Shown piece by piece: positions 6,679 to 56,013 of a DNA stretch of 64,000 nucleotides; position 1 is the first letter of the stretch; each line of letters opens with the position of its first letter. This DNA comes from Escherichia phage moha. The notes under the pieces were generated by a model, which ran no database searches, was not told the DNA's origin, and was given only the letters and a program-made list of their open reading frames with translations. Location of the stretch: sequence record MN850590.1; one strand, written 5' to 3'. The translations under genes were made by a program, and so were the position numbers.

Positions 6679-7272
6679 ATGAACACACTGAAGAAACTTG
6701 TTGAATTCATCCGCACTAAACTTGGTACTGCTATGGCTAAAAATCTGACTGTCGAAGAACAGTATAACGCAGCTGCAGATAAGTTGATTACCCAAATCAA
6801 AGAACTAAAAACGGCTTCTGTTAAATCTATTAATGAAGAAAAACGTATTCGCGAACTTGTTAATGAAAAGAACAAGCAAGCCGCTTCTAAGGAACGTGAA
6901 ATTCGTAAGCTCCTGGCTGAAGGACAAGATGTTACCATGCATGCTAAGCTTGGTCTTCTGTATCGTCGAACTGCCGAACAACTTAATACAAAAGCTGACG
7001 GGTATGCCGCTATGCGAATTGAAATTGCTCGTAAGGTGGTTGAACTTGATGATGCTCGTCAGAATCTGGCAATCAAACTCGAATACATTCGTGAAACTCG
7101 AGCAGCCAATGCCCTTGGTATCTCTACGGCCGATGATGTAATTGAAATAGCTGCACTGACTAAGGTTGATATCGAAGACACTCTGACTCGTGTTGAAACG
7201 TTCAATGGCACTCCAGCCGGCGTCGAAACCACTTCTGCTGATGTACAAGAATATATTAACTCTTTGAAATAA
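6679..7272 (+). CDS. coiled-coil protein, function unknown
   Basis: 197 aa from ATG 6679 (SD gaaagg); heptad-rich sequence. Confidence 0.8.
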
Positions 7273-7280
7273 AATAATAC

Positions 7281-7302
7281 GGAGGACTCCGGTCCTCCTT
7301 TT
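7281..7302 (+). terminator. rho-independent terminator
   Basis: GGAGGAC-tccg-GTCCTCC followed by TTTT. Confidence 0.7.
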
Positions 7303-7321
7303 GGATAATAAAGGAGTTAAC

Positions 7322-7924
7322 ATGCGAAACCAAAATAATGATATTGACTCAATGTTCGAAGAGTTCCGAGATAAGGTAAATCCACCTACGTCTTTAGTTG
7401 ATTCATTACGATATGTTGCAACCGGACGTAAATGGTACTGGTCGTCTTCTTATGAGACCACCGAGAAAACGGCTAGCCATAGCAGAAAATCTTTATTAGC
7501 CCCAGGTATTATGATTCATGATATCGGAGCTATTGCTAAACTAGTTGCAGACCATGATATTAGATTCACCGATTTCGTTGCTCCTACATGGTCTGTTTGT
7601 TGTTTAAACACTGAATGGGAATATATCAGCGAACGCTCTAAAGATTATTATGGTTTTAGAGATAAGCTTCTGAGGTCTAATATGTTTTATATCGATACAG
7701 AAGTTCTAGTCGATAATAAAAAATATTACTTTACGTTAATCATCGATTCTGAAACTATGTATGAAGGCAAGCCTTTGCTTAAAAGAGTTGATGCTTTAAG
7801 TGCTATTGATGCGCTTTATGAAACTATGGTTGTTAGTCCTAATTTCACTAACAATTTAATCCTTGAGCAATTTATTATGGAATGTAGAGAATATGTCAAA
7901 GCCAACCCTATACATGCCAAGTAA
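7322..7924 (+). CDS. hypothetical protein
   Basis: 200 aa from ATG 7322, SD aaggag. Confidence 0.8.
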   Translation: MRNQNNDIDSMFEEFRDKVNPPTSLVDSLRYVATGRKWYWSSSYETTEKTASHSRKSLLAPGIMIHDIGAIAKLVADHDIRFTDFVAPTWSVCCLNTEWEYISERSKDYYGFRDKLLRSNMFYIDTEVLVDNKKYYFTLIIDSETMYEGKPLLKRVDALSAIDALYETMVVSPNFTNNLILEQFIMECREYVKANPIHAK

Positions 7925-8285
7925 GCCCTGGGCGTATGAATACAAGCGTAAATTAATCCCAAATGAAGTACTATTTGGCCCTATTTTAGCTTTAGCATTT
8001 TTAATCTTTATGATTATAGGAGCTGTTTTAGATTCTAGTGAAGTTATATCGTCTGATGCAGTGTTTTTACTTATTATAGCCGGGTCGTTTATTGTGCCAT
8101 TTTTATTAATGCCTATTAACTGGGTGGGATATTGGTACCAAGGACGTCATTATAGAGCTCGAGTACGCGAATGGAAAATTCAATGTGCAAAAGCTCAAGC
8201 TCAGTATGATGAAGCTGTTAAAAAGTATGAATATGAAGAAGCTATGGAATTCGTTAAGGAAATAAGATGCAAAAGCCTGAACTGA
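7893..8285 (+). CDS. membrane protein
   Basis: 130 aa; two predicted TM helices; start 7893 or 7914 uncertain. Confidence 0.65.
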   Translation: MSKPTLYMPSKPWAYEYKRKLIPNEVLFGPILALAFLIFMIIGAVLDSSEVISSDAVFLLIIAGSFIVPFLLMPINWVGYWYQGRHYRARVREWKIQCAKAQAQYDEAVKKYEYEEAMEFVKEIRCKSLN

Positions 8286-31467: not shown

Positions 31468-31941
31468 ATGTTATTATCTGGCAAATTATACAAAGAAGAA
31501 AAACAAAAATTTTATGATGCACAGAATGGTAAGTGTCCTATTTGCCACCGTGAATTAGACTCTGATGTTCAAGGTAACCATCTTGACCACGACCACGAAT
31601 TAAACGGGCCAAAAGCCGGTAGAGTTCGTGGATTACTCTGTAATCTGTGCAACGCAGCAGAAGGCCAAATGAAGCATAAGTTCAATCGTTCCGGTCTTAA
31701 AGGACGTGATGTTGACTACCTCGAATGGCTTGAAGCTCTTCTTGCTTATTTGAAACAAGATTATTCTGATAATAATATCCATCCTAATTTTGTTCCAGAC
31801 AAAACTAAAGAGTTCTCAAGACTAGGTAAAGAGGAAATGATGGCTGAGATGCTTCAAAGAGGATTTGAATATAATGAATCTGACACCAAAACACAGTTAA
31901 TAGCTTCATTTAAGAAGCAACTTAGAAAGAGTTTAAAATGA
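31468..31941 (+). CDS. 49: endonuclease VII (Holliday junction resolvase) gp49
   Basis: 157 aa; CPICHREL..HLDHDHELNG...CNLCN zinc/His-Me region as in T4 endo VII. Confidence 0.9.
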   Translation: MLLSGKLYKEEKQKFYDAQNGKCPICHRELDSDVQGNHLDHDHELNGPKAGRVRGLLCNLCNAAEGQMKHKFNRSGLKGRDVDYLEWLEALLAYLKQDYSDNNIHPNFVPDKTKEFSRLGKEEMMAEMLQRGFEYNESDTKTQLIASFKKQLRKSLK

Positions 31942-33755
31942 CAATTGAAAAAGAAATTGAAGGATTGATTCATAAAACTAATAAAGACCTTTTAAACGAG
32001 AATGCTAATAAAGATTCTCGTGTTTTTCCAACTCAACGGGACCTTATGGCTGGTATTGTGTCTAAACACATTGCCAAAAATATGGTCCCGTCTTTTATTA
32101 TGAAAGCGCATGAAAGCGGAATTATCCATTTCCACGATATTGATTATTCCCCTGCTCTTCCGTTTACTAATTGCTGTTTAGTCGATTTAAAGGGGATGCT
32201 TGAGAACGGATTTAAATTAGGCAATGCTCAAATTGAAACGCCTAAATCGATTGGTGTTGCTACTGCAATTATGGCACAAATTACTGCACAAGTTGCTTCC
32301 CATCAATACGGCGGAACGACTTTTGCTAATGTAGATAAAGTACTTTCTCCTTATGTTAAACGCACCTATGCAAAACATATTGAGGATGCAGAAAAATGGC
32401 AAATCGCTGATGCGTTGAATTATGCTCAATCTAAAACAGAAAAAGATGTATACGATGCATTCCAAGCTTATGAATATGAAGTAAATACTCTTTTTAGTTC
32501 AAACGGGCAAACGCCTTTTGTAACAATTACATTTGGTACGGGAACTGACTGGACTGAACGAATGATTCAGAAAGCAATTCTGAAAAATCGTATTAAAGGT
32601 CTTGGTCGTGATGGGATAACTCCTATTTTTCCTAAACTTGTTATGTTTGTTGAAGAAGGTGTTAATCTTTATAAAGATGATCCAAACTATGATATTAAAC
32701 AACTTGCGTTAGAATGTGCAAGCAAAAGAATGTATCCTGACATTATTTCGGTTAAGAATAATAAAGCTATTACCGGCTCATCTATTCCTGTTTCTCCAAT
32801 GGGTTGTCGTAGTTTCTTGAGCGTATGGAAAGATTCGACTGGTAATGAAATTCTTGATGGACGTAATAATCTTGGTGTTGTAACACTGAATCTTCCTCGT
32901 ATCGCATTAGATTCTTATATTGGAACCCAGTTCAATGAACAGAAATTTGTTGAATTATTCAATGAACGAATGGATTTATGTTTTGAAGCATTGATGTGCA
33001 GAATTAGTTCCTTAAAAGGAGTTAAAGCGACTGTTGCTCCTATTCTTTACCAAGAAGGTGCATTCGGGGTTCGTCTTAAACCTGATGACGACATAATTGA
33101 GTTATTTAAAAACGGTAGAAGTTCAGTGTCTTTAGGGTACATTGGTATTCACGAATTGAATATTCTTGTCGGTCGTGATATTGGGCAAGAAATTTTAACT
33201 AAAATGAATGCTCATCTTAAGCAGTGGACCGAAAGAACTGGATTTGCTTTTAGTTTATATTCTACTCCTGCTGAAAACCTTTGTTATCGCTTCTGTAAAC
33301 TCGATACAGAAAAATATGGAAGCGTAAAAGATGTTACTGATAAAGGCTGGTACACTAATAGTTTCCATGTTTCAGTAGAAGAAAATATTACTCCGTTTGA
33401 AAAGATTTCTCGTGAAGCGCCATATCATTTCATTGCGACAGGTGGTCACATTTCTTACGTTGAACTTCCTGATATGAAAAATAACCTAAAAGGTCTTGAG
33501 GCCGTGTGGGATTATGCTGCACAACATTTAGATTATTTTGGTGTTAATATGCCAGTAGATAAATGTTTTACATGCGGAAGTACCCATGAAATGACTCCTA
33601 CTGAAAACGGATTTGTTTGTTCTATTTGTGGAGAAACTGATCCTAAAAAGATGAACACAATAAGAAGAACATGCGGATATCTTGGAACTCCTAGCGTTGT
33701 TCCATGGAATTTAGGTAAAATGAAAGAAATGGTAAAACGAGTAAAACATGCATAG
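31938..33755 (+). CDS. nrdD: anaerobic ribonucleoside-triphosphate reductase NrdD
   Basis: 605 aa, uninterrupted; C-terminal glycyl radical motif RRTCGYLG and Cys cluster CFTCG..CSICG. Confidence 0.95.
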   Translation: MTIEKEIEGLIHKTNKDLLNENANKDSRVFPTQRDLMAGIVSKHIAKNMVPSFIMKAHESGIIHFHDIDYSPALPFTNCCLVDLKGMLENGFKLGNAQIETPKSIGVATAIMAQITAQVASHQYGGTTFANVDKVLSPYVKRTYAKHIEDAEKWQIADALNYAQSKTEKDVYDAFQAYEYEVNTLFSSNGQTPFVTITFGTGTDWTERMIQKAILKNRIKGLGRDGITPIFPKLVMFVEEGVNLYKDDPNYDIKQLALECASKRMYPDIISVKNNKAITGSSIPVSPMGCRSFLSVWKDSTGNEILDGRNNLGVVTLNLPRIALDSYIGTQFNEQKFVELFNERMDLCFEALMCRISSLKGVKATVAPILYQEGAFGVRLKPDDDIIELFKNGRSSVSLGYIGIHELNILVGRDIGQEILTKMNAHLKQWTERTGFAFSLYSTPAENLCYRFCKLDTEKYGSVKDVTDKGWYTNSFHVSVEENITPFEKISREAPYHFIATGGHISYVELPDMKNNLKGLEAVWDYAAQHLDYFGVNMPVDKCFTCGSTHEMTPTENGFVCSICGETDPKKMNTIRRTCGYLGTPSVVPWNLGKMKEMVKRVKHA

Positions 33756-34578
33756 GTATTATATAATTTATAAAATAACAAATATAATTAATTCAAAGGA
33801 ATATATCGGTGCGCATAGCACCGATAACATAAATGACGGTTATATGGGGTCAGGAACATTGATTCGTGCCGCTTTATTAAAATATGGTAGAAAAAATTTT
33901 AATAAAGAAATTTTACATGTTTTTGATAATGAAAAACAAATGTATGATAAAGAAGCTGAACTTGTAACCGAAGAGTATTGTCTAAAAGAAAATACATATA
34001 ATATTAAACCTGGTGGAAAAGGTGGAACTGCCTATGAACAGACACTTGAACATCGCCGTAAAAATAGTTTAGCAAATAAAGGTAAAAAGAGAACAGAAGA
34101 AACTAAAATAGCTATTTCACGTGCTTTAAAGAAATATAAACGTACGCCAGAGCATCAAGCAAATTTAAATAAAGCCGTAAGCATAGCTATGAAGCGAAAA
34201 GATGTTAGAAGTAAATTAGCTGGAGAGCGGTCTGAGAAAGATAAATTATCTATATCAAACGGTGTTAAAAAATATTACAATTCTTTGAGTGAAGAAGAAC
34301 GCGAACTTCATCGCAAGCGAATTATTGAAGGTAAAAAGAATTCTCCCATGTCATTGGAATCTAGACAAAAGCTTTCAAAAGCTTTAAAAGGGCTTCAAGT
34401 TGGTTCAAAAAATCCAATGTATGGAAAAATTTCTCCAACTAGCAAAACCGTTTCAGTTGACGGTATTAAATATGATTCAATTAAAAAGTGCTCAAATGCC
34501 ATAAAAGTTTCTAGACATCTTATACTAAAACGCTGTAATTCTACTGATGAAGCTTGGAAAAATTGGATATTATTATGA
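33748..34578 (+). CDS. free-standing GIY-YIG homing endonuclease (Seg-like)
   Basis: 276 aa; IIY..(10)..YIGAHS GIY-YIG motif; repeated basic helix motifs in C-terminal half; overlaps nrdD stop by 8 nt. Confidence 0.85.
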   Translation: MHRYYIIYKITNIINSKEYIGAHSTDNINDGYMGSGTLIRAALLKYGRKNFNKEILHVFDNEKQMYDKEAELVTEEYCLKENTYNIKPGGKGGTAYEQTLEHRRKNSLANKGKKRTEETKIAISRALKKYKRTPEHQANLNKAVSIAMKRKDVRSKLAGERSEKDKLSISNGVKKYYNSLSEEERELHRKRIIEGKKNSPMSLESRQKLSKALKGLQVGSKNPMYGKISPTSKTVSVDGIKYDSIKKCSNAIKVSRHLILKRCNSTDEAWKNWILL

Positions 34579-35045
34579 ATTATGATAGATTTTATCCTTG
34601 CGATTTTGTGAATGGCCCTGGTTGCAGGGTCGTTCTTTTCGTTACAGGTTGTTTGCATAAATGCGAAGGGTGTTATAATAAATCAACATGGAATGCTAGA
34701 AATGGTATTCCATTCACCGGAGAGACACTAGAACAATTAATTGAATGTTTGAATAATGATTATATAGAAGGATTGACTATAACCGGAGGTGACCCTCTCT
34801 ATCCTGATAACAGAGATGTGATTCACTCTGTGGTTCAAACTATTAAAAATCTTTATCCCAATAAAAGCATTTGGCTGTGGACAGGATATAAGTTTGAAGA
34901 TATTAAACAGCTAGAAATGCTTAAATATGTTGATGTTATTATTGATGGGAAGTATGAGAAAAATCTTCCGACTAAAAAGCTGTGGCGAGGATCAGATAAT
35001 CAGCGACTTTGGTCAAATACCGATGGGGTGTGGAAACATGATTAA
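34575..35045 (+). CDS. nrdG: anaerobic RNR activating enzyme NrdG (radical SAM)
   Basis: 156 aa from ATG 34575; CLHKCEGC cluster motif. Confidence 0.9.
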   Translation: MNYDRFYPCDFVNGPGCRVVLFVTGCLHKCEGCYNKSTWNARNGIPFTGETLEQLIECLNNDYIEGLTITGGDPLYPDNRDVIHSVVQTIKNLYPNKSIWLWTGYKFEDIKQLEMLKYVDVIIDGKYEKNLPTKKLWRGSDNQRLWSNTDGVWKHD

Positions 35046-46666: not shown

Positions 46667-49378
46667 ATGAAAGAATTTTACTTAACGGTTGAACAGATTG
46701 GTGATTCAATTTTTGAACGTTACATCGATTCTAATGGCCGTGAACGTACTCGTGAAGTAGAATATAAACCATCACTGTTTGCTCATTGTCCAGAAAGTCA
46801 GGCTACGAAATATTTCGATATCTACGGTAAGCCGTGTACTCGTAAGTTGTTCGCCAATATGCGTGATGCCTCCCAATGGATTAAACGCATGGAAGATATC
46901 GGTCTTGAAGCATTAGGTATGGACGATTTCAAATTGGCGTATTTGTCTGACACTTATAACTATGAAATCAAATACGACCATACAAAAATTCGTGTGGCTA
47001 ACTTCGACATCGAAGTAACATCTCCAGATGGGTTCCCTGAGCCGTCACAAGCAAAACATCCGATTGATGCTATCACCCATTATGACTCAATTGACGACAG
47101 GTTCTACGTATTTGATCTATTGAATTCTCCATATGGTAATGTAGAAGAATGGTCTATTGAAATCGCTGCTAAGCTTCAAGAACAAGGCGGTGATGAAGTT
47201 CCATCCGAAATTATCGATAAAATCATTTATATGCCGTTCGATAACGAAAAAGAATTGTTGATGGAATATCTCAACTTCTGGCAACAGAAAACTCCTGTCA
47301 TTTTGACTGGATGGAACGTTGAGTCATTTGATATTCCATATGTGTATAACCGAATCAAGAATATTTTTGGCGAATCTACTGCGAAACGTTTATCACCACA
47401 TCGTAAAACTCGTGTTAAAGTTATCGAAAACATGTATGGTTCTCGTGAAATCATTACATTGTTCGGTATCTCTGTTCTTGATTACATTGACCTTTACAAA
47501 AAATTCTCTTTTACCAATCAACCGTCGTATTCTCTGGATTACATTTCAGAATTTGAATTGAACGTTGGTAAACTGAAATATGACGGCCCTATTTCTAAGC
47601 TTCGTGAAAGCAATCACCAACGATATATTTCTTATAACATTATCGACGTGTATCGTGTATTGCAAATTGATGCTAAGCGTCAGTTCATCAACTTGAGTTT
47701 GGACATGGGTTATTATGCTAAGATACAGATTCAATCTGTGTTTAGCCCAATTAAAACATGGGATGCTATTATTTTTAATAGCCTTAAAGAGCAGAACAAG
47801 GTGATTCCACAAGGTCGTTCTCACCCTGTTCAACCTTATCCTGGCGCTTTTGTTAAGGAACCTATTCCAAATCGATACAAATATGTAATGAGTTTCGACC
47901 TTACATCTCTGTATCCAAGTATTATTCGCCAAGTGAATATTAGCCCAGAAACAATAGCAGGAACGTTTAAAGTAGCTCCATTGCATGATTATATTAACGC
48001 AATCGCTGAACGTCCTTCTGATGTGTACAGTTGTTCTCCTAACGGCATGATGTATTATAAAGACCGTGACGGTGTTGTTCCAACTGAAATCACTAAGGTC
48101 TTTAATCAACGTAAAGAACATAAAGGTTATATGCTTGCGGCTCAACGTAATGGTGAAATAATTAAAGAGGCACTGCATAATCCTAATCTTTCTGTTGACG
48201 AACCATTAGATGTTGATTATCGTTTCGACTTCAGTGATGAGATTAAAGAAAAGATTAAAAAGTTGTCTGCTAAATCTCTTAATGAAATGTTGTTTAGAGC
48301 TCAACGTACTGAAGTTGCAGGTATGACTGCACAGATTAACCGTAAATTGCTTATCAACTCACTTTATGGTGCACTTGGCAACGTTTGGTTCCGTTATTAT
48401 GATTTGCGTAATGCTACTGCAATCACAACATTCGGTCAAATGGCTTTACAGTGGATTGAACGTAAAGTTAATGAATATCTGAATGAAGTTTGTGGTACAG
48501 AAGGTGAAGCTTTCGTTCTTTATGGTGATACAGACTCTATTTACGTATCTGCTGATAAAATTATCGATAAGGTTGGTGAATCTAAATTCCGTGATACCAA
48601 CCATTGGGTAGACTTCTTAGATAAGTTCGCACGTGAACGTATGGAACCGGCTATTGATAGAGGTTTCCGTGAAATGTGTGAATACATGAACAATAAACAA
48701 CACTTAATGTTCATGGACCGAGAAGCTATCGCTGGTCCTCCGCTCGGTTCTAAAGGTATTGGTGGATTCTGGACTGGTAAGAAACGTTATGCATTAAACG
48801 TTTGGGATATGGAAGGTACTCGTTACGCTGAGCCTAAACTCAAAATCATGGGTCTAGAGACTCAGAAATCTTCGACTCCTAAAGCAGTACAGAAAGCTCT
48901 TAAAGAATGTATTCGTCGTATGCTTCAAGAAGGTGAAGAATCATTACAAGAATATTTTAAAGAGTTTGAAAAAGAATTCCGTCAATTGAATTATATTAGC
49001 ATCGCGTCGGTATCTTCTGCGAATAACATTGCTAAATATGACGTTGGTGGATTCCCTGGTCCTAAATGTCCGTTCCATATTCGTGGAATTCTGACGTATA
49101 ACCGGGCTATCAAAGGTAATATTGATGCTCCACAAGTTGTAGAAGGTGAAAAAGTATATGTTCTGCCTTTACGTGAAGGAAACCCATTCGGTGATAAATG
49201 TATCGCATGGCCTTCTGGTACTGAAATCACAGATTTAATTAAAGACGACGTACTTCATTGGATGGACTACACTGTTCTCCTTGAGAAGACATTTATTAAA
49301 CCACTTGAAGGATTCACATCAGCAGCGAAACTCGATTACGAGAAGAAAGCATCTCTGTTCGATATGTTCGATTTTTGA
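46667..49378 (+). CDS. 43: DNA polymerase gp43 (family B)
   Basis: 903 aa; exo motif FDIEV, pol motifs SLYPSI and YGDTDS; N-terminus matches RB69 gp43 as recalled. Confidence 0.97.
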   Translation: MKEFYLTVEQIGDSIFERYIDSNGRERTREVEYKPSLFAHCPESQATKYFDIYGKPCTRKLFANMRDASQWIKRMEDIGLEALGMDDFKLAYLSDTYNYEIKYDHTKIRVANFDIEVTSPDGFPEPSQAKHPIDAITHYDSIDDRFYVFDLLNSPYGNVEEWSIEIAAKLQEQGGDEVPSEIIDKIIYMPFDNEKELLMEYLNFWQQKTPVILTGWNVESFDIPYVYNRIKNIFGESTAKRLSPHRKTRVKVIENMYGSREIITLFGISVLDYIDLYKKFSFTNQPSYSLDYISEFELNVGKLKYDGPISKLRESNHQRYISYNIIDVYRVLQIDAKRQFINLSLDMGYYAKIQIQSVFSPIKTWDAIIFNSLKEQNKVIPQGRSHPVQPYPGAFVKEPIPNRYKYVMSFDLTSLYPSIIRQVNISPETIAGTFKVAPLHDYINAIAERPSDVYSCSPNGMMYYKDRDGVVPTEITKVFNQRKEHKGYMLAAQRNGEIIKEALHNPNLSVDEPLDVDYRFDFSDEIKEKIKKLSAKSLNEMLFRAQRTEVAGMTAQINRKLLINSLYGALGNVWFRYYDLRNATAITTFGQMALQWIERKVNEYLNEVCGTEGEAFVLYGDTDSIYVSADKIIDKVGESKFRDTNHWVDFLDKFARERMEPAIDRGFREMCEYMNNKQHLMFMDREAIAGPPLGSKGIGGFWTGKKRYALNVWDMEGTRYAEPKLKIMGLETQKSSTPKAVQKALKECIRRMLQEGEESLQEYFKEFEKEFRQLNYISIASVSSANNIAKYDVGGFPGPKCPFHIRGILTYNRAIKGNIDAPQVVEGEKVYVLPLREGNPFGDKCIAWPSGTEITDLIKDDVLHWMDYTVLLEKTFIKPLEGFTSAAKLDYEKKASLFDMFDF

Positions 49379-49418
49379 TATAATACCATGGACGGTAAAC
49401 TAATTAAATGAGAGAAAT

Positions 49419-50054
49419 ATGAAAACTACTCCTATTACTATCGCTATTGACGCAATCGTAAAACAAGCTTCTTCTTTGGCTACTATGGCCAAAGTAATTA
49501 GTCAAAACCCTGCTCGTTATAATGCTATTCTAGAAACTCTTCGACGCCCAGGACTTAGCAATTATGAAAGCCGAGTAATTATTACAGGTGTTGGTAAGAA
49601 TGCTAATATTGCAACTAAAGCTTCTGAGACATTTGCTTCACTCGGTATCCCAAGTATGTACTTGAACACCGGGCATTATTCTCACGGTGATGCAGGATTC
49701 ATTGCGCCTAATGATGTGTTGATTCATATTAGTCGTTCTGGTAAGACCGAAGAAATGATAGGTGTTGCTAAACATCTTCGTATGATTCGTCCGAACGTCA
49801 AACAGATTCTGTTGCATTGTAACCCAGACATTCCACAAGAAAATGAAGCCCTTTTTGATTACTCTTTCTGTACAGGCATCGCAGTAGAGGTTGACGAGAA
49901 CTCTTTAGCTCCGACTATGTCTACTACATTGTTGTTAGCGCTTATCGATACGTTTGCTATCAACCTTTCGTCTGAGCGTGGATTTACCTCTAATGACTTC
50001 CTTAAGTTCCACCCTGGTGGTGCACTAGGTGCCATGTTACGAGGCGAACAATGA
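49419..50054 (+). CDS. SIS-domain sugar-phosphate isomerase (KdsD/GutQ arabinose-5-phosphate isomerase-like)
   Basis: 211 aa; GVGKNANIATK...HGDAGF...ISRSGKTEE aligns with KdsD SIS core GMGKSGHIG..HGDLGM..ISNSGES. Confidence 0.8.
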   Translation: MKTTPITIAIDAIVKQASSLATMAKVISQNPARYNAILETLRRPGLSNYESRVIITGVGKNANIATKASETFASLGIPSMYLNTGHYSHGDAGFIAPNDVLIHISRSGKTEEMIGVAKHLRMIRPNVKQILLHCNPDIPQENEALFDYSFCTGIAVEVDENSLAPTMSTTLLLALIDTFAINLSSERGFTSNDFLKFHPGGALGAMLRGEQ

Positions 50055-50194
50055 AAGCAATAACAATAGGACTTTTACTATTGATGCTTGTCATGACTAT
50101 CTACTGGAGCTTAACAGCTCCAGTAATGATTCCAACACTTGTAATTGGATGGATTATGATTGGACTACAAGCAAAGTATGAATGCTTTAACTAG
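50051..50194 (+). CDS. possible 47-aa membrane peptide (not in ORF track)
   Basis: ATGA overlap with SIS gene stop; hydrophobic with IGWIMIG; sits where T4 imm lies. Confidence 0.4.
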   Translation: MKAITIGLLLLMLVMTIYWSLTAPVMIPTLVIGWIMIGLQAKYECFN

Positions 50195-50235
50195 AATAGT
50201 GTACAATACTCCTACTTACCAATGAGGACTTCAAC

Positions 50236-51921
50236 ATGAAAAAAGCTGTTATTCTTGGTGCTGGATTGGCAACTCGTTTATATCCAATAACGCATCATAT
50301 TCCTAAGGTGCTTGTTAACTATAAACAAGACACTATTCTGAGCAATTTGTATACAATTTATTCTGACCTTGGCGCAGATGAAATTATTGTAGTAGTTCAT
50401 TCAAAATTTGCTGAAACTGTTCGAGCTTATTGTGAGCAAGAAGGGTTCAATGTGACTATTCGTACAGTTGATGAAGCGTATGGATCTGCTTATGCTCTTG
50501 CTAAATTACACAAAGATTTAGACGGCCATAATGTAATTGTTAACTGGTGTGATATTATTCCTGATTTTGGTTCATGGTCTTGGAATGTTAACGCAATCTA
50601 TGTTAAAGGTGACGAATGTCGATATAATTTCGACGGTGAAAATATCACTAACGTAGGTTCAACAGGTGGTAATGTTGTAGGAATTTATCAGTTCAAAGAC
50701 TGGGAATTCTATATGGGTTCTACTGATGAAGAAATTCATGAATACTGCAAAGGACGTGATTTCGTAGAATTCCTTTACGCCAGCGCATTCAATAAATCAG
50801 AGCTTATGAATCTAATTGATTTAGGTGATATGCCTAAACTTGAAAAGGCTCATGAAGTTCGTGAACTTAATCGTAGTTTTAATGCAGTTGAAATTGGTGA
50901 AGAAACTGTAACTAAATTCGCATTGACCGAACAGGGTCGAGCTCTTCAGAAAGATGAGATTTCATGGTATCTTAAAGTGAAATCGGATTCAGTTCCTCAG
51001 TTAGTTTCTGTTAATGAAAATAACTTTGAAATGGAACGCATTAAAGGTAAGCCGGCATTTGAATATATTAAATCCAAATCAAGTCTTGCTCGTCCACAAA
51101 TTGTTGATGCAATTTTAGATGCACTGAAATTCAGCACAGACACTTATTTTGTAAGTCCTGAAACTGTTCGTCGTGATTTCACTAAAGAATTCTATACGAA
51201 AGTTATTGATCGTTGTGAAAGCATTCAACCATTGATTGATTCATTTGGTAAAATCACGCATGTGAACTACACTAAGATTGGACGTCTGAAGCCAATGCTG
51301 AAACAAGCTTTAGAACACCTTATTCGTTATCATAACCGTTCTCAGGGGCAGTACTCTGTTATTCACGGTGACCCGAACTTCAGTAATACTATGATTACTG
51401 ATAACGGCGAAGTCAAGTTTATCGACCCTCGTGGATATTTTGGCGAAACCAAGATTTACGGGCCAAAATTGTATGATGAAGCTAAAGTGCTTTATGCTGT
51501 TTCAGGTTATGATGAATTCAATGCTAATCCGACCTGGGGACAGTTTACTATTGATGAAACAACTTGTAATGTGACTATTAACATCAATCCATTAGTTTAC
51601 AAATATGGAAAGATGAGTTCGTTTAACGAGTATCATCATTTGGCAGTGGCAATTATCTGGATTGCATTAGGTGGTTATTTCAAGAATAATCCACTTAAAG
51701 CGGTAGCCGCATATTATAAAGGTATGGAACTTCTGACTAAGCAATTACGTAACATGGGCCGTGTACTTCAGGACGGCTCTATTAGTTATGACGTAGCAGA
51801 ACCTGTAACGGCTACTCTGATTACAAAAAATCCTGGTAAATGGGTACTAACTGATAAAGAAACTGGTGTTTCCTATCGTCCAATCGGTGGCGATATCACT
51901 CATCAATGGGAACGAATCTAA
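50236..51921 (+). CDS. bifunctional sugar-1-phosphate nucleotidyltransferase / APH-choline-kinase-like sugar kinase
   Basis: 561 aa; N-terminal ILGAGLATRL nucleotidyltransferase loop; C-terminal HGDPNFSN...FIDPRGYFG kinase catalytic/Mg motifs. Confidence 0.85.
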   Translation: MKKAVILGAGLATRLYPITHHIPKVLVNYKQDTILSNLYTIYSDLGADEIIVVVHSKFAETVRAYCEQEGFNVTIRTVDEAYGSAYALAKLHKDLDGHNVIVNWCDIIPDFGSWSWNVNAIYVKGDECRYNFDGENITNVGSTGGNVVGIYQFKDWEFYMGSTDEEIHEYCKGRDFVEFLYASAFNKSELMNLIDLGDMPKLEKAHEVRELNRSFNAVEIGEETVTKFALTEQGRALQKDEISWYLKVKSDSVPQLVSVNENNFEMERIKGKPAFEYIKSKSSLARPQIVDAILDALKFSTDTYFVSPETVRRDFTKEFYTKVIDRCESIQPLIDSFGKITHVNYTKIGRLKPMLKQALEHLIRYHNRSQGQYSVIHGDPNFSNTMITDNGEVKFIDPRGYFGETKIYGPKLYDEAKVLYAVSGYDEFNANPTWGQFTIDETTCNVTININPLVYKYGKMSSFNEYHHLAVAIIWIALGGYFKNNPLKAVAAYYKGMELLTKQLRNMGRVLQDGSISYDVAEPVTATLITKNPGKWVLTDKETGVSYRPIGGDITHQWERI

Positions 51922-52307
51922 TGCCCCGTGTAGAAAACATGCTTAATCTTTGTTTTGATGTCGATGATTGCATCACGGAATGGAATAACAATCGTGATTA
52001 CGTGAACTTCAAACCAGACGTCGAAATGGTGTCTGCCATTAATGCCCTGTATGATGCAGGGCATACCATAACGCTTTACACTGCTCGTGGTATGAAGTCA
52101 GTAGGTCCTGGTCGTATAGCAATTGACATTCTCCCAAGTCTGATTCAGAACTTGGAAAACATTGGTTTGAAGTACCATAATTTGCTAACACATAAACCAG
52201 TATATGATTGGATTATCGACGACAAAGCTATGCGTCCTGATGAATTCAAAGCTCTTATGAATAAAGGCGAATTCGAAACATTTAAATCATATAAACCAAA
52301 TCTATAA
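51921..52307 (+). CDS. HAD-superfamily phosphatase
   Basis: 128 aa from ATG 51921 (TAATG overlap); motif I FDVDDCIT, later TARG and IIDDK. Confidence 0.75.
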   Translation: MPRVENMLNLCFDVDDCITEWNNNRDYVNFKPDVEMVSAINALYDAGHTITLYTARGMKSVGPGRIAIDILPSLIQNLENIGLKYHNLLTHKPVYDWIIDDKAMRPDEFKALMNKGEFETFKSYKPNL

Positions 52308-52364
52308 TAATTTAAGTAAGACCTGCAAAAACCATCGCATCAATTAACGTGAGATGCAAAAAAA

Positions 52365-53525
52365 ATGAATACTTTTAAAATCGGAACGAATTTTGATTTA
52401 GCTCTTCTTGATAAAATCGTAGAGCTCAATAAAACCTATCCTAATAGCTTGATAAACGAAGTATATGGCTCTACAAGAGAAATGGCTTTTGTAGCAGCCA
52501 GACCTGATTTTAGGCTTCCTGACGTTGACAAAAAGATGTTAGAAGACTACGTTAAACGTTGTAACGAATTAGGTATTTGCTTTAACTATACACTCAACAC
52601 GATAAATCCTGGTTCAAAAAGAGAACTAGTTGAGTGGAAGAAGAAAGCTATTCAGGATTATGTTCAGTATCTTTGGTCAATAGGCGTATGGCGTATTACT
52701 ATCGCTAACCCTGTTGTTATGGAAATTGTTCGTGAAGTCAATAAAGATATTGAGATTGAAGTTTCAACAATTCTACATGTCGATGCTGTAACTCAAATAA
52801 AATACTTGCATGACCAATATAACATCAAAAAGGTCTGTTGCGGAATTCATAAGAACCGTTCAGTTTCTTTCCTGAAGCGTGCAGCAGAGTTTTGCAATAA
52901 GAACAATATAATATTTGAAGTTCTTGTAAATGAGTTCTGTTCTAATGCTGGTAAAGGGTATACAACACATTGTAGCTATCGTGACTCTTGCTATATTTTC
53001 CATAGTACTGATGTTACCGCTGATGATGCTAAATCCTTAAATGGATATCCAATGCAACACTGCATTAAAGCTCGTGATACAGACCCATTTAACTGGCTGA
53101 GAACTCGTTTTGTTCGTCCTCAAGATTTGAAACTTTATAATGATATTGGTATCACTCAATTCAAAGTTTCAGGACGTACAGGTAGCACAGACTACATTTT
53201 GAAAGTTCTTGAAGCATACGCTTCTGAAAAGTTTGAAGGTAATTTGTTAGAACTGTGGAAGCCTTTAGAGACTATTTTCACTCTTGAAAACGAAACTGAG
53301 TTTTCACATACAGTAAATATTGAAACCTCTTTGTTAGATGGCTTTTTAGAAAAAAGGTGGTTCAGACATCCAGATTTCGATTGTGCTAATGAAATCTGCG
53401 GGACGACGTGTACATATTGTGAAAGATATTATAAACGTCAATTATCTAAAAACGGGTTAGCAGAAAACTCTATATCTATTATTGATATAACTAACTCTGA
53501 TGACGCTTTGAGGTACCCGGAATGA
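52365..53525 (+). CDS. hypothetical protein with C-terminal Cys cluster
   Basis: 386 aa; CANEICGTTCTYC (C-x3-C-x3-C-x2-C) near C-terminus; no confident fold. Confidence 0.85.
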   Translation: MNTFKIGTNFDLALLDKIVELNKTYPNSLINEVYGSTREMAFVAARPDFRLPDVDKKMLEDYVKRCNELGICFNYTLNTINPGSKRELVEWKKKAIQDYVQYLWSIGVWRITIANPVVMEIVREVNKDIEIEVSTILHVDAVTQIKYLHDQYNIKKVCCGIHKNRSVSFLKRAAEFCNKNNIIFEVLVNEFCSNAGKGYTTHCSYRDSCYIFHSTDVTADDAKSLNGYPMQHCIKARDTDPFNWLRTRFVRPQDLKLYNDIGITQFKVSGRTGSTDYILKVLEAYASEKFEGNLLELWKPLETIFTLENETEFSHTVNIETSLLDGFLEKRWFRHPDFDCANEICGTTCTYCERYYKRQLSKNGLAENSISIIDITNSDDALRYPE

Positions 53526-53761
53526 TTTCTAGAAAAACTTTTAACCACCAACTTAATGAAGAGATTTTGACTATGAAACTGAACACTAATGAACAAATTC
53601 TTAAAAAGGCCCTGATGGGCCTTTTTGAAACTAAAGCGGCTAAAGTGATTAAAGAACCTGTTCAATTAGAATACTACGCTGATGCATTTCTTCATAGTGT
53701 TCTTGGAAGTATCGATGCCGAAGCTTTACGTTATATCAATATTGCCAAGAAATTCAAATAA
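53522..53761 (+). CDS. hypothetical small protein (doubtful)
   Basis: 79 aa; contains terminator-like hairpin GGCCC-tgat-GGGCC TTTTT at 53606-53624. Confidence 0.45.
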   Translation: MISRKTFNHQLNEEILTMKLNTNEQILKKALMGLFETKAAKVIKEPVQLEYYADAFLHSVLGSIDAEALRYINIAKKFK

Positions 53762-53784
53762 GCTTTACGAATTGAGTATATAAT
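53762..53784 (+). promoter_or_regulatory. possible middle promoter
   Basis: GCTTTA box, 11 bp, TATAAT; the box motif is duplicated 40 bp upstream. Confidence 0.4.
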
Positions 53785-53802
53785 AATTGTATTGAGGTAA
53801 AC

Positions 53803-54519
53803 ATGGGAAAACATAACACAATGAAATATATCAAAGCCGCAGATTTTCAAACCGCATTTAAAGCAGTCAATCGTGAAATTTTAGAAAACCCGGAATTCGT
53901 AACTGATTCTCGTATTGGACGTTGTAATGAAATTGGGTCTATGACAGTAGTTGTTGACACTCCATCATCATTCAAAATGACCGACCCACGTATTAACCGC
54001 ATCTCTTATGAATATGCCGAAGACTTCTGGAAGTTTATGATTTCTGGTGGTACCAACGCAGAAGAAGCGTTTAAGGCATATCCTAATGTCGCTAAATTTA
54101 TTTCTAAACCAAAATCAGATGTTTTGCCGGCGAACTTCAACACTTTCTATGGTCCTCGCATTGCGGCTCAATTACCAGCTCTTCTAAAAGAACTTAAAGA
54201 GAAGCCTAACTCTCGAAGAGTTGTGTTCCAAATTCTAGAAAGTTCTGATCAGGCTTTGCTTGATTCGGACGAAACGCTTGAATATCCATGTACTGACTCA
54301 GTGACTTATTATATTCGTGATGGTAAGCTTTATACCCACTGTCATATGCGTTCTCAGAACTGTGCTGTTGTTATGCAGTTGGATTTTTATCTCCAAGGAA
54401 AATTACTTCATTATATCGCTAACGAATGTGGTGTAGAAGTTGGTGATTATACTCATACCATGGTAAGTGCCCATGTGTTTGAACGTGATTTTGATTATGT
54501 TAAAGGATTCCTTGACTAA
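53803..54519 (+). CDS. 42: thymidylate-synthase-fold pyrimidine hydroxymethylase (gp42-like dCMP hydroxymethylase, divergent)
   Basis: 238 aa; NSRR...YPCTDSVTYYIRD...MRSQN pattern parallels T4 gp42 DSRR...MCTNTVQYLIRD...MRSND. Confidence 0.7.
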   Translation: MGKHNTMKYIKAADFQTAFKAVNREILENPEFVTDSRIGRCNEIGSMTVVVDTPSSFKMTDPRINRISYEYAEDFWKFMISGGTNAEEAFKAYPNVAKFISKPKSDVLPANFNTFYGPRIAAQLPALLKELKEKPNSRRVVFQILESSDQALLDSDETLEYPCTDSVTYYIRDGKLYTHCHMRSQNCAVVMQLDFYLQGKLLHYIANECGVEVGDYTHTMVSAHVFERDFDYVKGFLD

Positions 54520-55418
54520 TGGCTATTTTCCGCGTACCTATCTTGAGTATGCGGTCTTATGAAACTGGACAGTATGCTATCCTTAAGGATGGCAACTTCC
54601 AACTTCATTTGCACCGTGCTAATCCAGGTGATGTGATTACATATCCACGTAATGCATCTGATATTAAAGAATGTGAACGTCTTTTCCCAGAATTTAAGTT
54701 TGTTCCATTATGGTATAAAGATAACGCGTATAACACTCGTAAATATTTCTGGTCTGAAAATGAATTTGTGGTTGATTCATTAATTGCTTATTATGATTGT
54801 GATTTTCTAATCACAGATATCACTGGATATGATGGTGCTTTTGATGTAGAATTCAATTTCAATATCACTGCAGACCCTAATAAACCACGTTTTTATATTG
54901 ACGAATTCTTAAAAACTGATATGTTGTCGGTTAATCGTTCACTTCAAACTACTGTGTTGAATGAACGTCAAAAAGAAGTGCTGGTTAACGCAGGTGCAAA
55001 TGGTAATAAGATTATCGTAACGCAGAAAGTTATACGTCCTTCCATCATGCAGCGTCTTGTAGGTGATTTGGCTCCTATTCATCTAGATGGTATTTTTCAT
55101 CCATTTCGAATTAGTGACCCATGCTATCGTTTTGAACAAGTGGTTGAATGTGCAATTCAATTAGGTCAACCGCTTTATATAACCGATCCAAATAATAGCT
55201 TCGACAGAAATAAGTATCCTGAAGAAGCGTTGATTCGAATTTTTAAACCAACTAAAACTGAGTACTATCAAATTCTTAAAGGACGTCCGAAGATTCAATA
55301 TTTCGAAAATCCTGAAGAAGTATTCCATCCAGGTCTTGGTGAGTTCATCTACTTTAATGCTTTAATTTCTTCGCCGTATAATATACCTAAATACGAAGAT
55401 GTCGTAATCGAGGAATAA
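54519..55418 (+). CDS. hypothetical protein at beta-glucosyltransferase position (candidate transferase)
   Basis: 299 aa; TAATG overlap with upstream gene; no motif recognised. Confidence 0.8.
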   Translation: MAIFRVPILSMRSYETGQYAILKDGNFQLHLHRANPGDVITYPRNASDIKECERLFPEFKFVPLWYKDNAYNTRKYFWSENEFVVDSLIAYYDCDFLITDITGYDGAFDVEFNFNITADPNKPRFYIDEFLKTDMLSVNRSLQTTVLNERQKEVLVNAGANGNKIIVTQKVIRPSIMQRLVGDLAPIHLDGIFHPFRISDPCYRFEQVVECAIQLGQPLYITDPNNSFDRNKYPEEALIRIFKPTKTEYYQILKGRPKIQYFENPEEVFHPGLGEFIYFNALISSPYNIPKYEDVVIEE

Positions 55419-55419
55419 A

Positions 55420-55968
55420 ATGGCTAAAATTATTTTAGTAGACGGCCCAGATAATGCTGGTAAAACAACTTTCATTAATGACATAATGGAAATTAGTGAA
55501 AGATATGTAAAGATTGATTTCCCTAAACGAACAGTTGATGGACGTTTCGATGTTAAGTCTCGAAATGAAGTTGGCTGTTTCGAAACGATGTTGAATTATT
55601 TAGACCCTACTAAGATTTATCTGTTAGACCGTGGATATATTAGTAACTGGGTTTATGGACGTATTCGACAAGATGCGGACTCGGTTCTTGATGTTTATGA
55701 ACAGGATTATGTTCGTCTTTGCCAAAACCATGATGTGTTCACAATTATTTTAACACGTAACGAAATGACTGAAAGTTTTGAAGACGACCTTATTACTTTG
55801 TCTTCATTCGGTTTTAATACAGTCATTTCACATTTTGAAGAGTTTGCAATTCATAACAAAATCCAAACGTATCAATTACTTAATCATGATGGTGCTAACA
55901 AAGTTATAGGATTTAATGCAAGCGAACGTAATGATTTGATTACAGAAATCATCAAATGGGCTCGTTAA
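55420..55968 (+). CDS. P-loop kinase (nucleoside/nucleotide kinase-like)
   Basis: 182 aa; Walker A VDGPDNAGKTT; LLDRGY motif. Confidence 0.8.
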   Translation: MAKIILVDGPDNAGKTTFINDIMEISERYVKIDFPKRTVDGRFDVKSRNEVGCFETMLNYLDPTKIYLLDRGYISNWVYGRIRQDADSVLDVYEQDYVRLCQNHDVFTIILTRNEMTESFEDDLITLSSFGFNTVISHFEEFAIHNKIQTYQLLNHDGANKVIGFNASERNDLITEIIKWAR

Positions 55969-55987
55969 GAGCCATTTAAAGTTTTAA

Positions 55988-56013
55988 ATGCTGTATAACC
56001 CTTAGTATATAAT
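55988..56013 (+). promoter_or_regulatory. possible middle promoter for uvsX
   Basis: ATGCTGTA box, ~13 bp, TATAAT. Confidence 0.35.

Follow-up and report, generated by a model that had tools for sequence, protein, structure and literature searches.

Escherichia phage moha (sequence record MN850590.1) was analyzed over a window of 64,000 nucleotides, read as one strand from 5' to 3'. The phage is of the T4 type and belongs to the genus Mosigvirus, and it shares 98% identity with many RB69-like phages over the region 49300-56100. This region holds a DNA-modification cluster between the genes for DNA polymerase and UvsX. The gene studied here lies inside that cluster, where the original prediction, made from the letters alone, had placed it, and it is the ortholog of RB69 gp50 (RB69p050). 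We found that its 386-amino-acid (aa) product belongs to the U32 family, and we consider it reasonably likely that the protein is an O2-independent isozyme of the phage 5-hydroxy-dCMP synthase, namely a prephenate-dependent counterpart of the ThyA homolog gp48 encoded two genes downstream. The cluster contains the following genes, in this order and ending at UvsX:

46667-49378: DNA polymerase, flanking the cluster
49419..50054, plus strand: SIS-domain arabinose-5-phosphate isomerase (RB69 gp55), from family matches and comparison with RB69 (PMC13326640)
50236..51921, plus strand: bifunctional nucleotidyltransferase/kinase, AfhE-like (RB69 gp52:53), forming UDP-arabinose, from family matches (PMC13326640)
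51906..52307, plus strand: HAD-type phosphatase, AfhF-like (RB69 gp51), from PHROG and RB69 comparison (PMC13326640)
52365..53525, plus strand: gene for the U32-family, putative iron-sulfur (Fe-S) protein (RB69 gp50), 386 aa, with the ATG start of the open reading frame (ORF) listing
53522..53761, plus strand: gene for a 79-aa gp49-type protein (PHROG 8601), its ATG overlapping the U32 stop codon (ATGA)
53803..54519, plus strand: ThyA homolog (RB69 gp48), the published flavin- and O2-dependent 5-hydroxy-dCMP synthase (Pfam Thymidylat_synt)
54519..55418, plus strand: DNA arabinosyltransferase 1 (RB69 gp46:47; PHROG 3891; PMC13326640, Table 1)
55420..55968, plus strand: thymidylate-kinase-like nucleotide kinase (RB69 gp45), from family and RB69 comparison

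The target protein was identical to RB69 gp50 at 384 of 386 positions and the ThyA homolog to gp48 at 236 of 238. No second U32 copy was found in the window. The ORF at 52365-53525 and its C-terminal four-cysteine cluster, CANEICGTTCTYC, were exactly as originally described. Its start codon at 52365 is the conserved one, as homologs begin at MNTFK. The RB69 annotation starts 9 nt upstream, at an ATG that is out of frame in the window. The homopolymer before the U32 start (52354-52364) is A8 in the window and A6 in RB69; this tract length shifts the upstream ATG in or out of frame, which explains the 389 aa annotated in RB69 versus 386 aa here. The A8 versus A6 tract also alters the spacing between a GAG Shine-Dalgarno-like element and the U32 start codon.

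The pathway served by this cluster is largely known. RB69 DNA bears arabinosylated 5-hydroxycytosine (5hoC) and not hydroxymethylcytosine, and gp48 makes 5-hydroxy-dCMP, binds flavin, and takes its oxygen from O2 as determined by 18O2 labelling (PMC13326640). Together with a dNMP kinase, gp48 suffices in E. coli, and three sugar genes suffice for UDP-arabinofuranose (PMC13326640). In the same paper, RB69p050 appears in Table 1 only, under the label 'Sugar or heterocycle reductase' and with no discussion of its role, and other pyrimidine hydroxylation pathways are mentioned for RNA without a tie to gp50 (PMC13326640). An earlier survey noted 'homologs among peptidases' for the gene (PMC8056088). 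The position of the gene directly after three sugar-activation genes, and a TIM barrel resembling many sugar and redox enzymes, would suit a sugar or heterocycle reductase or a tailoring enzyme of the arabinose branch, which is how both Table 1 and the original prediction, with its transfer or tailoring step, had seen it. However, the route from ribulose 5-phosphate to UDP-arabinofuranose is complete without a redox step, and Acinetobacter phage DLP3, which has no U32 gene, makes the same arabinosyl-5hoC as RB69 (PMC13326640). Moreover, the conserved partners of the gene, described below, are chorismate mutase and DAHP synthase, which play no part in pentose activation. A role in the sugar branch is thus quite unlikely, and the earlier proposal of such a role was not supported.

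The target protein is a single-domain member of the U32 family in both sequence and fold. It matched Pfam Peptidase_U32 (PF01136) over residues 94-286 with 42.2 bits (E 7e-11) against a gathering cut-off of 22.4. A confident AlphaFold model built from 83 sequences (predicted local distance difference test, pLDDT, 93.1; predicted template modelling score, pTM, 0.91) matched the TIM-barrel fold of the solved U32 structure Mk0906 (5d88). It has eight barrel strands, of which the seventh and eighth are separated by an insertion of about 75 residues, and a helical extension follows at the C-terminus. The original prediction had reported no assignable motif; a Pfam match above the gathering threshold and the U32 TIM-barrel fold overturn that statement, and the structure prediction and profile comparison it had named as a check returned the U32 family. 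A direct sequence search of the PDB with the target gave no match at E <= 1. With a profile search of 1.84 billion representatives, 492 sequences were retrieved at E <= 1e-30 and 1,700 at E <= 1e-3, and judged by sequence the target family is a small, discrete, and separate U32 subfamily. The best profile match among the characterized E. coli U32 enzymes was RlhA (hhalign probability 73%, E 3e-5). UbiU was the sole match among NCBIfam equivalog models, at 18.5 bits against a cut-off of 440, which falls short of orthology to a named subfamily.

Two other functions could be considered from family membership. The first, a true peptidase or collagenase in line with the database name, is hardly credible: only the historical family name and GenBank annotations speak for it, but all U32 proteins that have been given a cellular role are tied to hydroxylation (PMC10990095), the invariant positions hold cysteines and arginines in a pattern of the Fe-S type, and the genomic context is nucleotide metabolism. 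The second is an RNA hydroxylase like TrhP or RlhA, which would place ho5U or ho5C in the tRNA or rRNA of the phage or the host and tune translation, with the cluster position being incidental. Indeed, RNA is the target of all U32 enzymes known to act on nucleic acid, the best profile match is to RlhA, and the tRNA cmo5U pathway is also fed by prephenate. Yet the gene is embedded among DNA glycosyltransferase, sugar-activation, and deoxynucleotide genes, both in Straboviridae and in unrelated anaerobe-associated contigs, and in the latter U32 replaces the ThyA-type hydroxylase. The cluster also contains no CmoA/CmoB-type gene, and we regard an RNA substrate as unlikely.

U32 family members of known character bind [4Fe-4S] clusters via conserved cysteines (PMC6747719), and RlhA, TrhP, and UbiU/V are O2-independent and require their Fe-S clusters (PMC10990095, PMC6599085, PMC6747719). 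Two cysteine sites were distinguished in the target protein:

52938..53063, plus strand: core cysteine region (C192, C203, C209, C233) within the strand 7-8 insertion of the barrel, putative canonical [4Fe-4S] site of the U32 type
53382..53420, plus strand: C-terminal CX4CX3CX2C block (C340, C345, C349, C352), a family-specific extra site with a putative metal

The second of these, CANEICGTTCTYC, spans residues 340-352. At least four cysteines in a 13-residue window arose in 4.7% of shuffles (13 cysteines in 386 residues), and within a single sequence the block is marginally unusual. Its conservation, however, is far beyond chance: all 83 homologs compared (47-87% identity; mean column identity 49%) have C340, C345, C349, and C352, and each of the four is kept in 109-116 of 130 distant full-length family representatives, the other columns being mostly gaps. 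C158, C192, C203, C209, and C233 are likewise invariant in the same 83 homologs. C203, C209, and C233 align with C169/C176/C192 of RlhA, C170/C177/C193 of TrhP, and C169/C176/C193 of UbiU; the core spacing of the target is CX5CX23C, whereas the canonical hydroxylase pattern is CX6CX15CX3/4C or a variant. From the alignment, the C-terminal block is absent from RlhA, TrhP, UbiU, and UbiV. The metal or Fe-S site that had been suggested at the outset is a sound reading given U32 membership and the invariance of the C-terminal block, but the block is not the canonical U32 site: it would be an extra one, and the canonical U32 ligands are C203, C209, and C233. The extra metal site that marks the target family is probably a second Fe-S cluster. 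Eight cysteines are universally conserved in the family, a number sufficient for two [4Fe-4S] clusters per chain, and we infer that the protein binds two. Characterized U32 systems hold two clusters via two domains or two subunits (PMC6747719).

C345, C349, and C352 form a CX3CXYC motif that might recall a radical SAM enzyme. This assignment was rejected, as there was no Radical_SAM Pfam match at E <= 0.01; the motif lies in the C-terminal helical extension after the barrel, versus near the barrel N-terminus in radical SAM enzymes. In ten longer family members, an intein and DUF2621 tails were the only informative domain fusions. Inteins usually occupy conserved sites of replication and nucleotide-metabolism genes. 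In the 699-aa distant family member P0182, the intein (Hint, Intein_splicing) is inserted at the core-cysteine region.

The genes that accompany U32 in a conserved way encode chorismate mutase, which forms prephenate, and DAHP synthase, rather than sugar enzymes, and this ties U32 to prephenate synthesis. In Enterobacter phage Entb_45 (Kanagawavirus), a 79-aa gene overlapping the end of U32 encodes an AroQ chorismate mutase (CM_2, 40.9 bits against a cut-off of 27). AroQ chorismate mutases also lie directly beside U32 in Yersinia phage TG1 (Tegunavirus; 36.0 bits), Proteus phage Pm5461 (Bragavirus; 46.8 bits), and Shewanella phage Thanatos-2 (32.8 bits); in the last of these the cluster order is rearranged, with U32 and chorismate mutase still adjacent and overlapping by 4 nt. 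Serratia phage 92A1 and Pectobacterium phage PM2 carry an overlapping gene chain of U32, gp49-like gene, chorismate mutase, and ThyA homolog. The residues R8, R25, K36, S71, and Q75 are invariant in the phage chorismate mutases, and we take them to be the E. coli chorismate mutase active-site residues Arg11', Arg28, Lys39, Ser84, and Gln88. Using tblastn, the phage chorismate mutase gene was found in at least 51 phage records covering a dozen host genera; the search missed the Proteus copies, and the true number is therefore higher. Outside Straboviridae, chorismate mutase lies beside U32 in an Erysipelotrichales-binned (68.1 bits) and a Romboutsia-binned (51.6 bits) contig. In a contig from a Gastranaerophilaceae metagenome-assembled genome (MAG; locus L021), a fusion of DAHP synthase and chorismate mutase (6931-7959; 112.7 and 67.3 bits) is directly upstream of U32, and in contig L010 a DAHP synthase follows U32 (237 bits on DAHP synthase models versus 63 on KDO8P synthase models). 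In total, U32 and chorismate mutase are adjacent in at least four Straboviridae genera and three unrelated contigs, and DAHP synthase stands beside U32 in two. The mutase is the C-terminal part of the L021 fusion, an apparent viral or MAG shikimate-pathway auxiliary gene, and the same cluster also holds AfhE-like, HAD, SIS, and 525-aa GT1-like genes.

One glycosylation module is thus shared by clusters that have the ThyA-type enzyme, clusters that have U32, and clusters that have both. Proteins of about 330 aa beside U32 in L010, L012, and L013 are homologs of the arabinosyltransferase 1 in the window (tblastn E 1e-11 to 1e-14), and homologs of these GT1-like proteins adjoin U32 in L018, L020, L021, L023, and L024. 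SIS and AfhE-like genes surround U32 in L010, L020, and L021, and AfhE-like and HAD genes, without SIS, in L024. No ThyA-family gene was found within about 8 kb in 19 U32 loci, either by tblastn or with a hidden Markov model built from eight phage ThyA homologs. Among phages, U32 is present in 221 records, all with Enterobacterales or Shewanella hosts. The AfhE-like sugar gene is present in 368 records, including one Pseudomonas phage and 57 phages of Acinetobacter, a strict aerobe. None of these 57 is among the 221 U32 records, and in the one Acinetobacter cluster inspected, the HAD gene is followed directly by ThyA. Only 13 U32 loci were found among 185,579 species genomes, almost all in MAGs of obligate anaerobes; the cellular or MAG sources were Oscillospiraceae, Romboutsia, Erysipelotrichales, Gastranaerophilaceae, Tannerella, Phocaeicola, and colon Clostridia. 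Distant U32 homologs adjoin genes for dCMP deaminase, thymidylate kinase, dNK, NT5C, and UDG. The cluster of Escherichia phage Bp7 (L008, 5440-10151) has AfhE-like, HAD, kinase, ThyA-homolog, and glycosyltransferase genes, but U32 and chorismate mutase are absent and a SIS isomerase is not annotated.

These distributions also bear on a possible role of gp50 as a redox accessory of the ThyA-type synthase, for instance an Fe-S protein that reduces its flavin and is not itself a hydroxylase. The synthase gp48 needs reduced flavin, and the two genes are near each other and joined via overlapping small ORFs in several phages. Nevertheless, gp48 and the dNMP kinase suffice in E. coli, U32 occurs without a nearby ThyA homolog in contigs of anaerobes, and the link to chorismate mutase is left unexplained, all of which makes an accessory role very unlikely.

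The window also encodes the anaerobic ribonucleotide reductase and its activase:

31938..33755, plus strand: NrdD (Pfam NRDD 572 bits, Gly_radical 88 bits)
34554..35045, plus strand: NrdG-type radical-SAM activase (Pfam Fer4_12 165.8 bits, Radical_SAM 32.4 bits)

With NrdD and NrdG encoded, the phage is equipped for anoxic dNTP synthesis. Like U32, this known anaerobic isozyme is not prominent in Acinetobacter phages: in nrdD records, Acinetobacter is outside the top ten phage host genera, the tenth having 41 records.

We favor base hydroxylation as the function of gp50 because the U32 family, the gene neighborhoods, and the distribution all point to it. Its Fe-S content, prephenate use, substrate, and physiological role are inferred from these, and the mechanism outlined here is modelled on the one published for UbiU/V, TrhP, and RlhA. 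Prephenate is the proven oxygen donor for hydroxylation by UbiU/V (PMC10990095). The phage enzyme would first oxidize a cytosine nucleotide at its C5=C6 bond; this nucleotide is most likely dCMP, which the phage dCTPase supplies. Hydroxide from prephenate decarboxylation would then quench the intermediate to give 5-hydroxy-dCMP, phenylpyruvate, and CO2. Two electrons would leave through the Fe-S centers, first the canonical site (C203/C209/C233, possibly with C192) and then the C-terminal four-cysteine site acting as a built-in relay. The product would join the known route through dNMP kinase, polymerase, and arabinosylation on DNA. With its flavin and O2, the ThyA homolog gp48 does the same job in air, and in the anoxic gut the U32 route would be the only workable one. 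A chorismate mutase was not found in the window by tblastn, and because this phage has none of its own, we propose that it draws on host prephenate.

dCMP is considered the likeliest substrate because T4-type phages swap cytosine completely before replication, via dCTPase and dNMP kinase (PMC13326640). The same chemistry could act at another level, on cytosine in DNA after replication or on dCTP or dCDP. RlhA and TrhP act on polynucleotides (PMC5727448, PMC6599085), and in locus L012 the U32 gene adjoins a TET-associated glycosyltransferase (TAGT; 33.9 bits), a family acting on bases hydroxylated at the DNA level. Against a DNA-level substrate stand the pre-replicative replacement of cytosine just mentioned and the distant homologs found beside genes for enzymes of mononucleotides (dCMP deaminase, dNK, NT5C, and thymidylate kinase). 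Such a shift in substrate level seems rather unlikely to us.

Several observations weigh against an O2-independent 5-hydroxy-dCMP synthase. The reading was drawn from family, neighborhood, and distribution, and no U32 hydroxylase has been reconstituted in vitro so far (PMC10990095). The similarity to RlhA is modest, and the UbiU and TrhP NCBIfam models score far below their cut-offs. The canonical fourth cysteine is missing and its position is occupied by an invariant arginine (R237); from the sequences, C192 or a C-terminal cysteine could be the fourth ligand of the canonical cluster. The strongest clue comes from relatives, as Mosigviruses, the phage in the window among them, carry no chorismate mutase. 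For the anaerobe contigs, the lack of ThyA homologs holds for only about 8 kb around U32, and the distribution counts are not phylogenetically independent. Finally, about 40 Dhakavirus-type E. coli phages (Bp7 inspected) carry the pathway without U32, and the gene is not obligatory for enteric phages. If the hypothesis is true, these Dhakavirus phages should need O2 for cytosine modification or have another solution.

The closest functional parallels are found among the U32 hydroxylases. RlhA (YdcP), the E. coli 23S rRNA 5-hydroxycytidine-2501 synthase, shares with the target the U32 family and a C5-hydroxylated cytosine as the product; it is prephenate- and iron-linked (PMC5727448), and its CX6C pair and third cysteine align with C203, C209, and C233. 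It differs in its length of 653 aa, its two U32 domains, its rRNA substrate, its canonical CX3C fourth ligand, and the lack of a C-terminal CX4CX3CX2C block, and the similarity is remote and without an NCBIfam match. TrhP (YegQ) is a U32 protein that performs prephenate-dependent, O2-independent C5 hydroxylation of a pyrimidine in tRNA (ho5U34), and in the same organism the unrelated, O2-dependent TrhO makes the same product (PMC6599085), which is the logic proposed here for gp50 and gp48. TrhP differs from the target by its tRNA substrate, 453 aa, C-terminal domain, and CX6CX15CX3C pattern, and has a weak profile match to the phage family. UbiU and UbiV, U32 proteins that hydroxylate ubiquinone without O2 and have a [4Fe-4S] cluster each on conserved cysteines (PMC6747719), back up the O2-requiring flavin monooxygenases UbiIHF. 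Like the target, UbiU has no CX3C fourth cysteine, and it uses a distant one; unlike the target, UbiU-UbiV is a heterodimer that needs the lipid-binding UbiT and acts on a polyprenyl phenol. Mk0906 of Methanopyrus kandleri (PDB 5d88) is a U32 protein of 247 residues with no assigned function, which differs by the absence of a C-terminal helical extension with the four-cysteine block and shows 11-14% identity.

Outside the family, the ThyA-type 5-hydroxy-dCMP synthases (RB69 gp48, DLP3 gp80, and the HY126 enzyme) belong to the same cluster, have the same proposed product, and seem to trade places with U32 among clusters whose sugar and glycosyltransferase genes are the same; they differ by a thymidylate synthase fold, a flavin cofactor, and oxygen taken from O2 (PMC13326640). 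The pair NrdAB/NrdDG offers a precedent for an O2-independent isozyme in DNA-precursor synthesis of T4-type phages, although NrdDG differs from the U32 route by glycyl radical chemistry and other protein families.

In the full-text literature searched, which included neither He et al. 2026 nor the 2025 paper of Mahler et al., no prior statement on a role of U32, prephenate, or chorismate mutase in phage 5-hydroxycytosine was found, and within this literature an anaerobic route via gp50 is apparently a new proposal. We give an even chance to the broader claim that gp50 would be the first enzyme to hydroxylate a DNA precursor without O2 via prephenate, with two non-homologous routes to 5-hydroxycytosine tracking the oxygen physiology of the host. 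The ThyA-type enzyme would then be alone in phages of strict aerobes, both enzymes would occur in phages of facultative anaerobes, and U32 would be alone in phages of strict anaerobes. The first step of the pathway, as described in 2025-2026 papers, needs O2, whereas gut phages destroy dCTP and carry an anaerobic ribonucleotide reductase; gp50 would be a specific and testable answer to how such phages replicate without oxygen. Glycosylated 5-hydroxypyrimidine DNA would be widespread among phages of gut anaerobes, and viral chorismate mutase and DAHP synthase genes would be auxiliary genes serving DNA modification. The module in contigs of strict anaerobes predicts hidden hypermodified phage DNA in gut microbiomes, a reservoir relevant to restriction and CRISPR evasion, phage therapy, and sequencing bias. 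U32 hydroxylases have escaped reconstitution in vitro because they act on lipids or large RNAs (PMC10990095, PMC6747719), and a single-chain 386-aa enzyme with a soluble nucleotide substrate would offer the missing assay and open the prephenate mechanism to a direct test.

Other U32 neighborhoods suggested further modification systems. The phage-like contig of L012 (5777-14179) has U32 flanked by GT1-like, TAGT, dUTPase/DCD-type, second TAGT-like, and UDP-galactopyranose mutase genes, with no TET or ThyA gene near U32, and may encode a galactofuranosyl-hydroxypyrimidine DNA modification made through U32. In a second subclass, 40-47% identical to the target (L002, L019, L022, and L025-L030), a conserved gene for a protein of about 250 aa invariably stands immediately before U32. 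This 'class B' partner, found in Bacteroidota, Clostridia, and other MAGs, matched neither Pfam nor NCBIfam models. Further genes near U32 in L002 and L019 encode NT5C, dNK, an NMN transporter, a nucleoside deoxyribosyltransferase, a radical SAM-SPASM protein, and a second and very divergent U32. The neighborhood of this subclass looks like a separate nucleoside-modifying system in genomes of anaerobes. Radical SAM-SPASM proteins of about 310-340 aa are encoded near U32 in L001 (1314-2249), L013 (5972-7000), and L002 (14160-15185), and their recurrence within a few genes of U32 includes a 466-kb megaphage-like contig; none occur in Straboviridae clusters.

The 79-aa ORF that overlaps the U32 stop codon is identical to RB69 gp49 at 76 of 79 positions, contains no cysteine (53522-53761), and had no Pfam or NCBIfam match at E <= 10. 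The possibility that it is a cryptic AroQ chorismate mutase was rejected, since there was no CM_2 match and the hhalign probability against the phage chorismate mutase profile was 0.08%. Its YYxDAFxHSxxG motif is also kept in Yersinia phage TG1, Serratia phage 92A1, and Pectobacterium phage PM2, and in the latter two the gp49-type gene stands between U32 and chorismate mutase. The gp49-type protein may serve the U32 enzyme as an accessory factor.

Promoter and terminator scans of the region gave site numbers not above shuffle expectation. One candidate promoter, a consensus match only, precedes the U32 gene:

52281..52308, plus strand: candidate sigma-70-type promoter TTTAAA-16-TATAAT, 57 nt upstream of the U32 start

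The 561-aa sugar-activation gene (50236-51921) and the 299-aa arabinosyltransferase gene (54519-55418) are single intact ORFs in the window. The RB69 reference record splits both, into ORF052/053 and ORF046/047, respectively; the intact ORFs agree with the published view that the RB69 splits are sequencing errors. Two further genes were identified around nrdD:

31468-31941: Endonuclease VII, directly before nrdD
33748-34578: NUMOD3/I-TevI-like homing endonuclease ORF, overlapping the nrdD end

A mobile endonuclease is inserted between nrdD and nrdG in the window.

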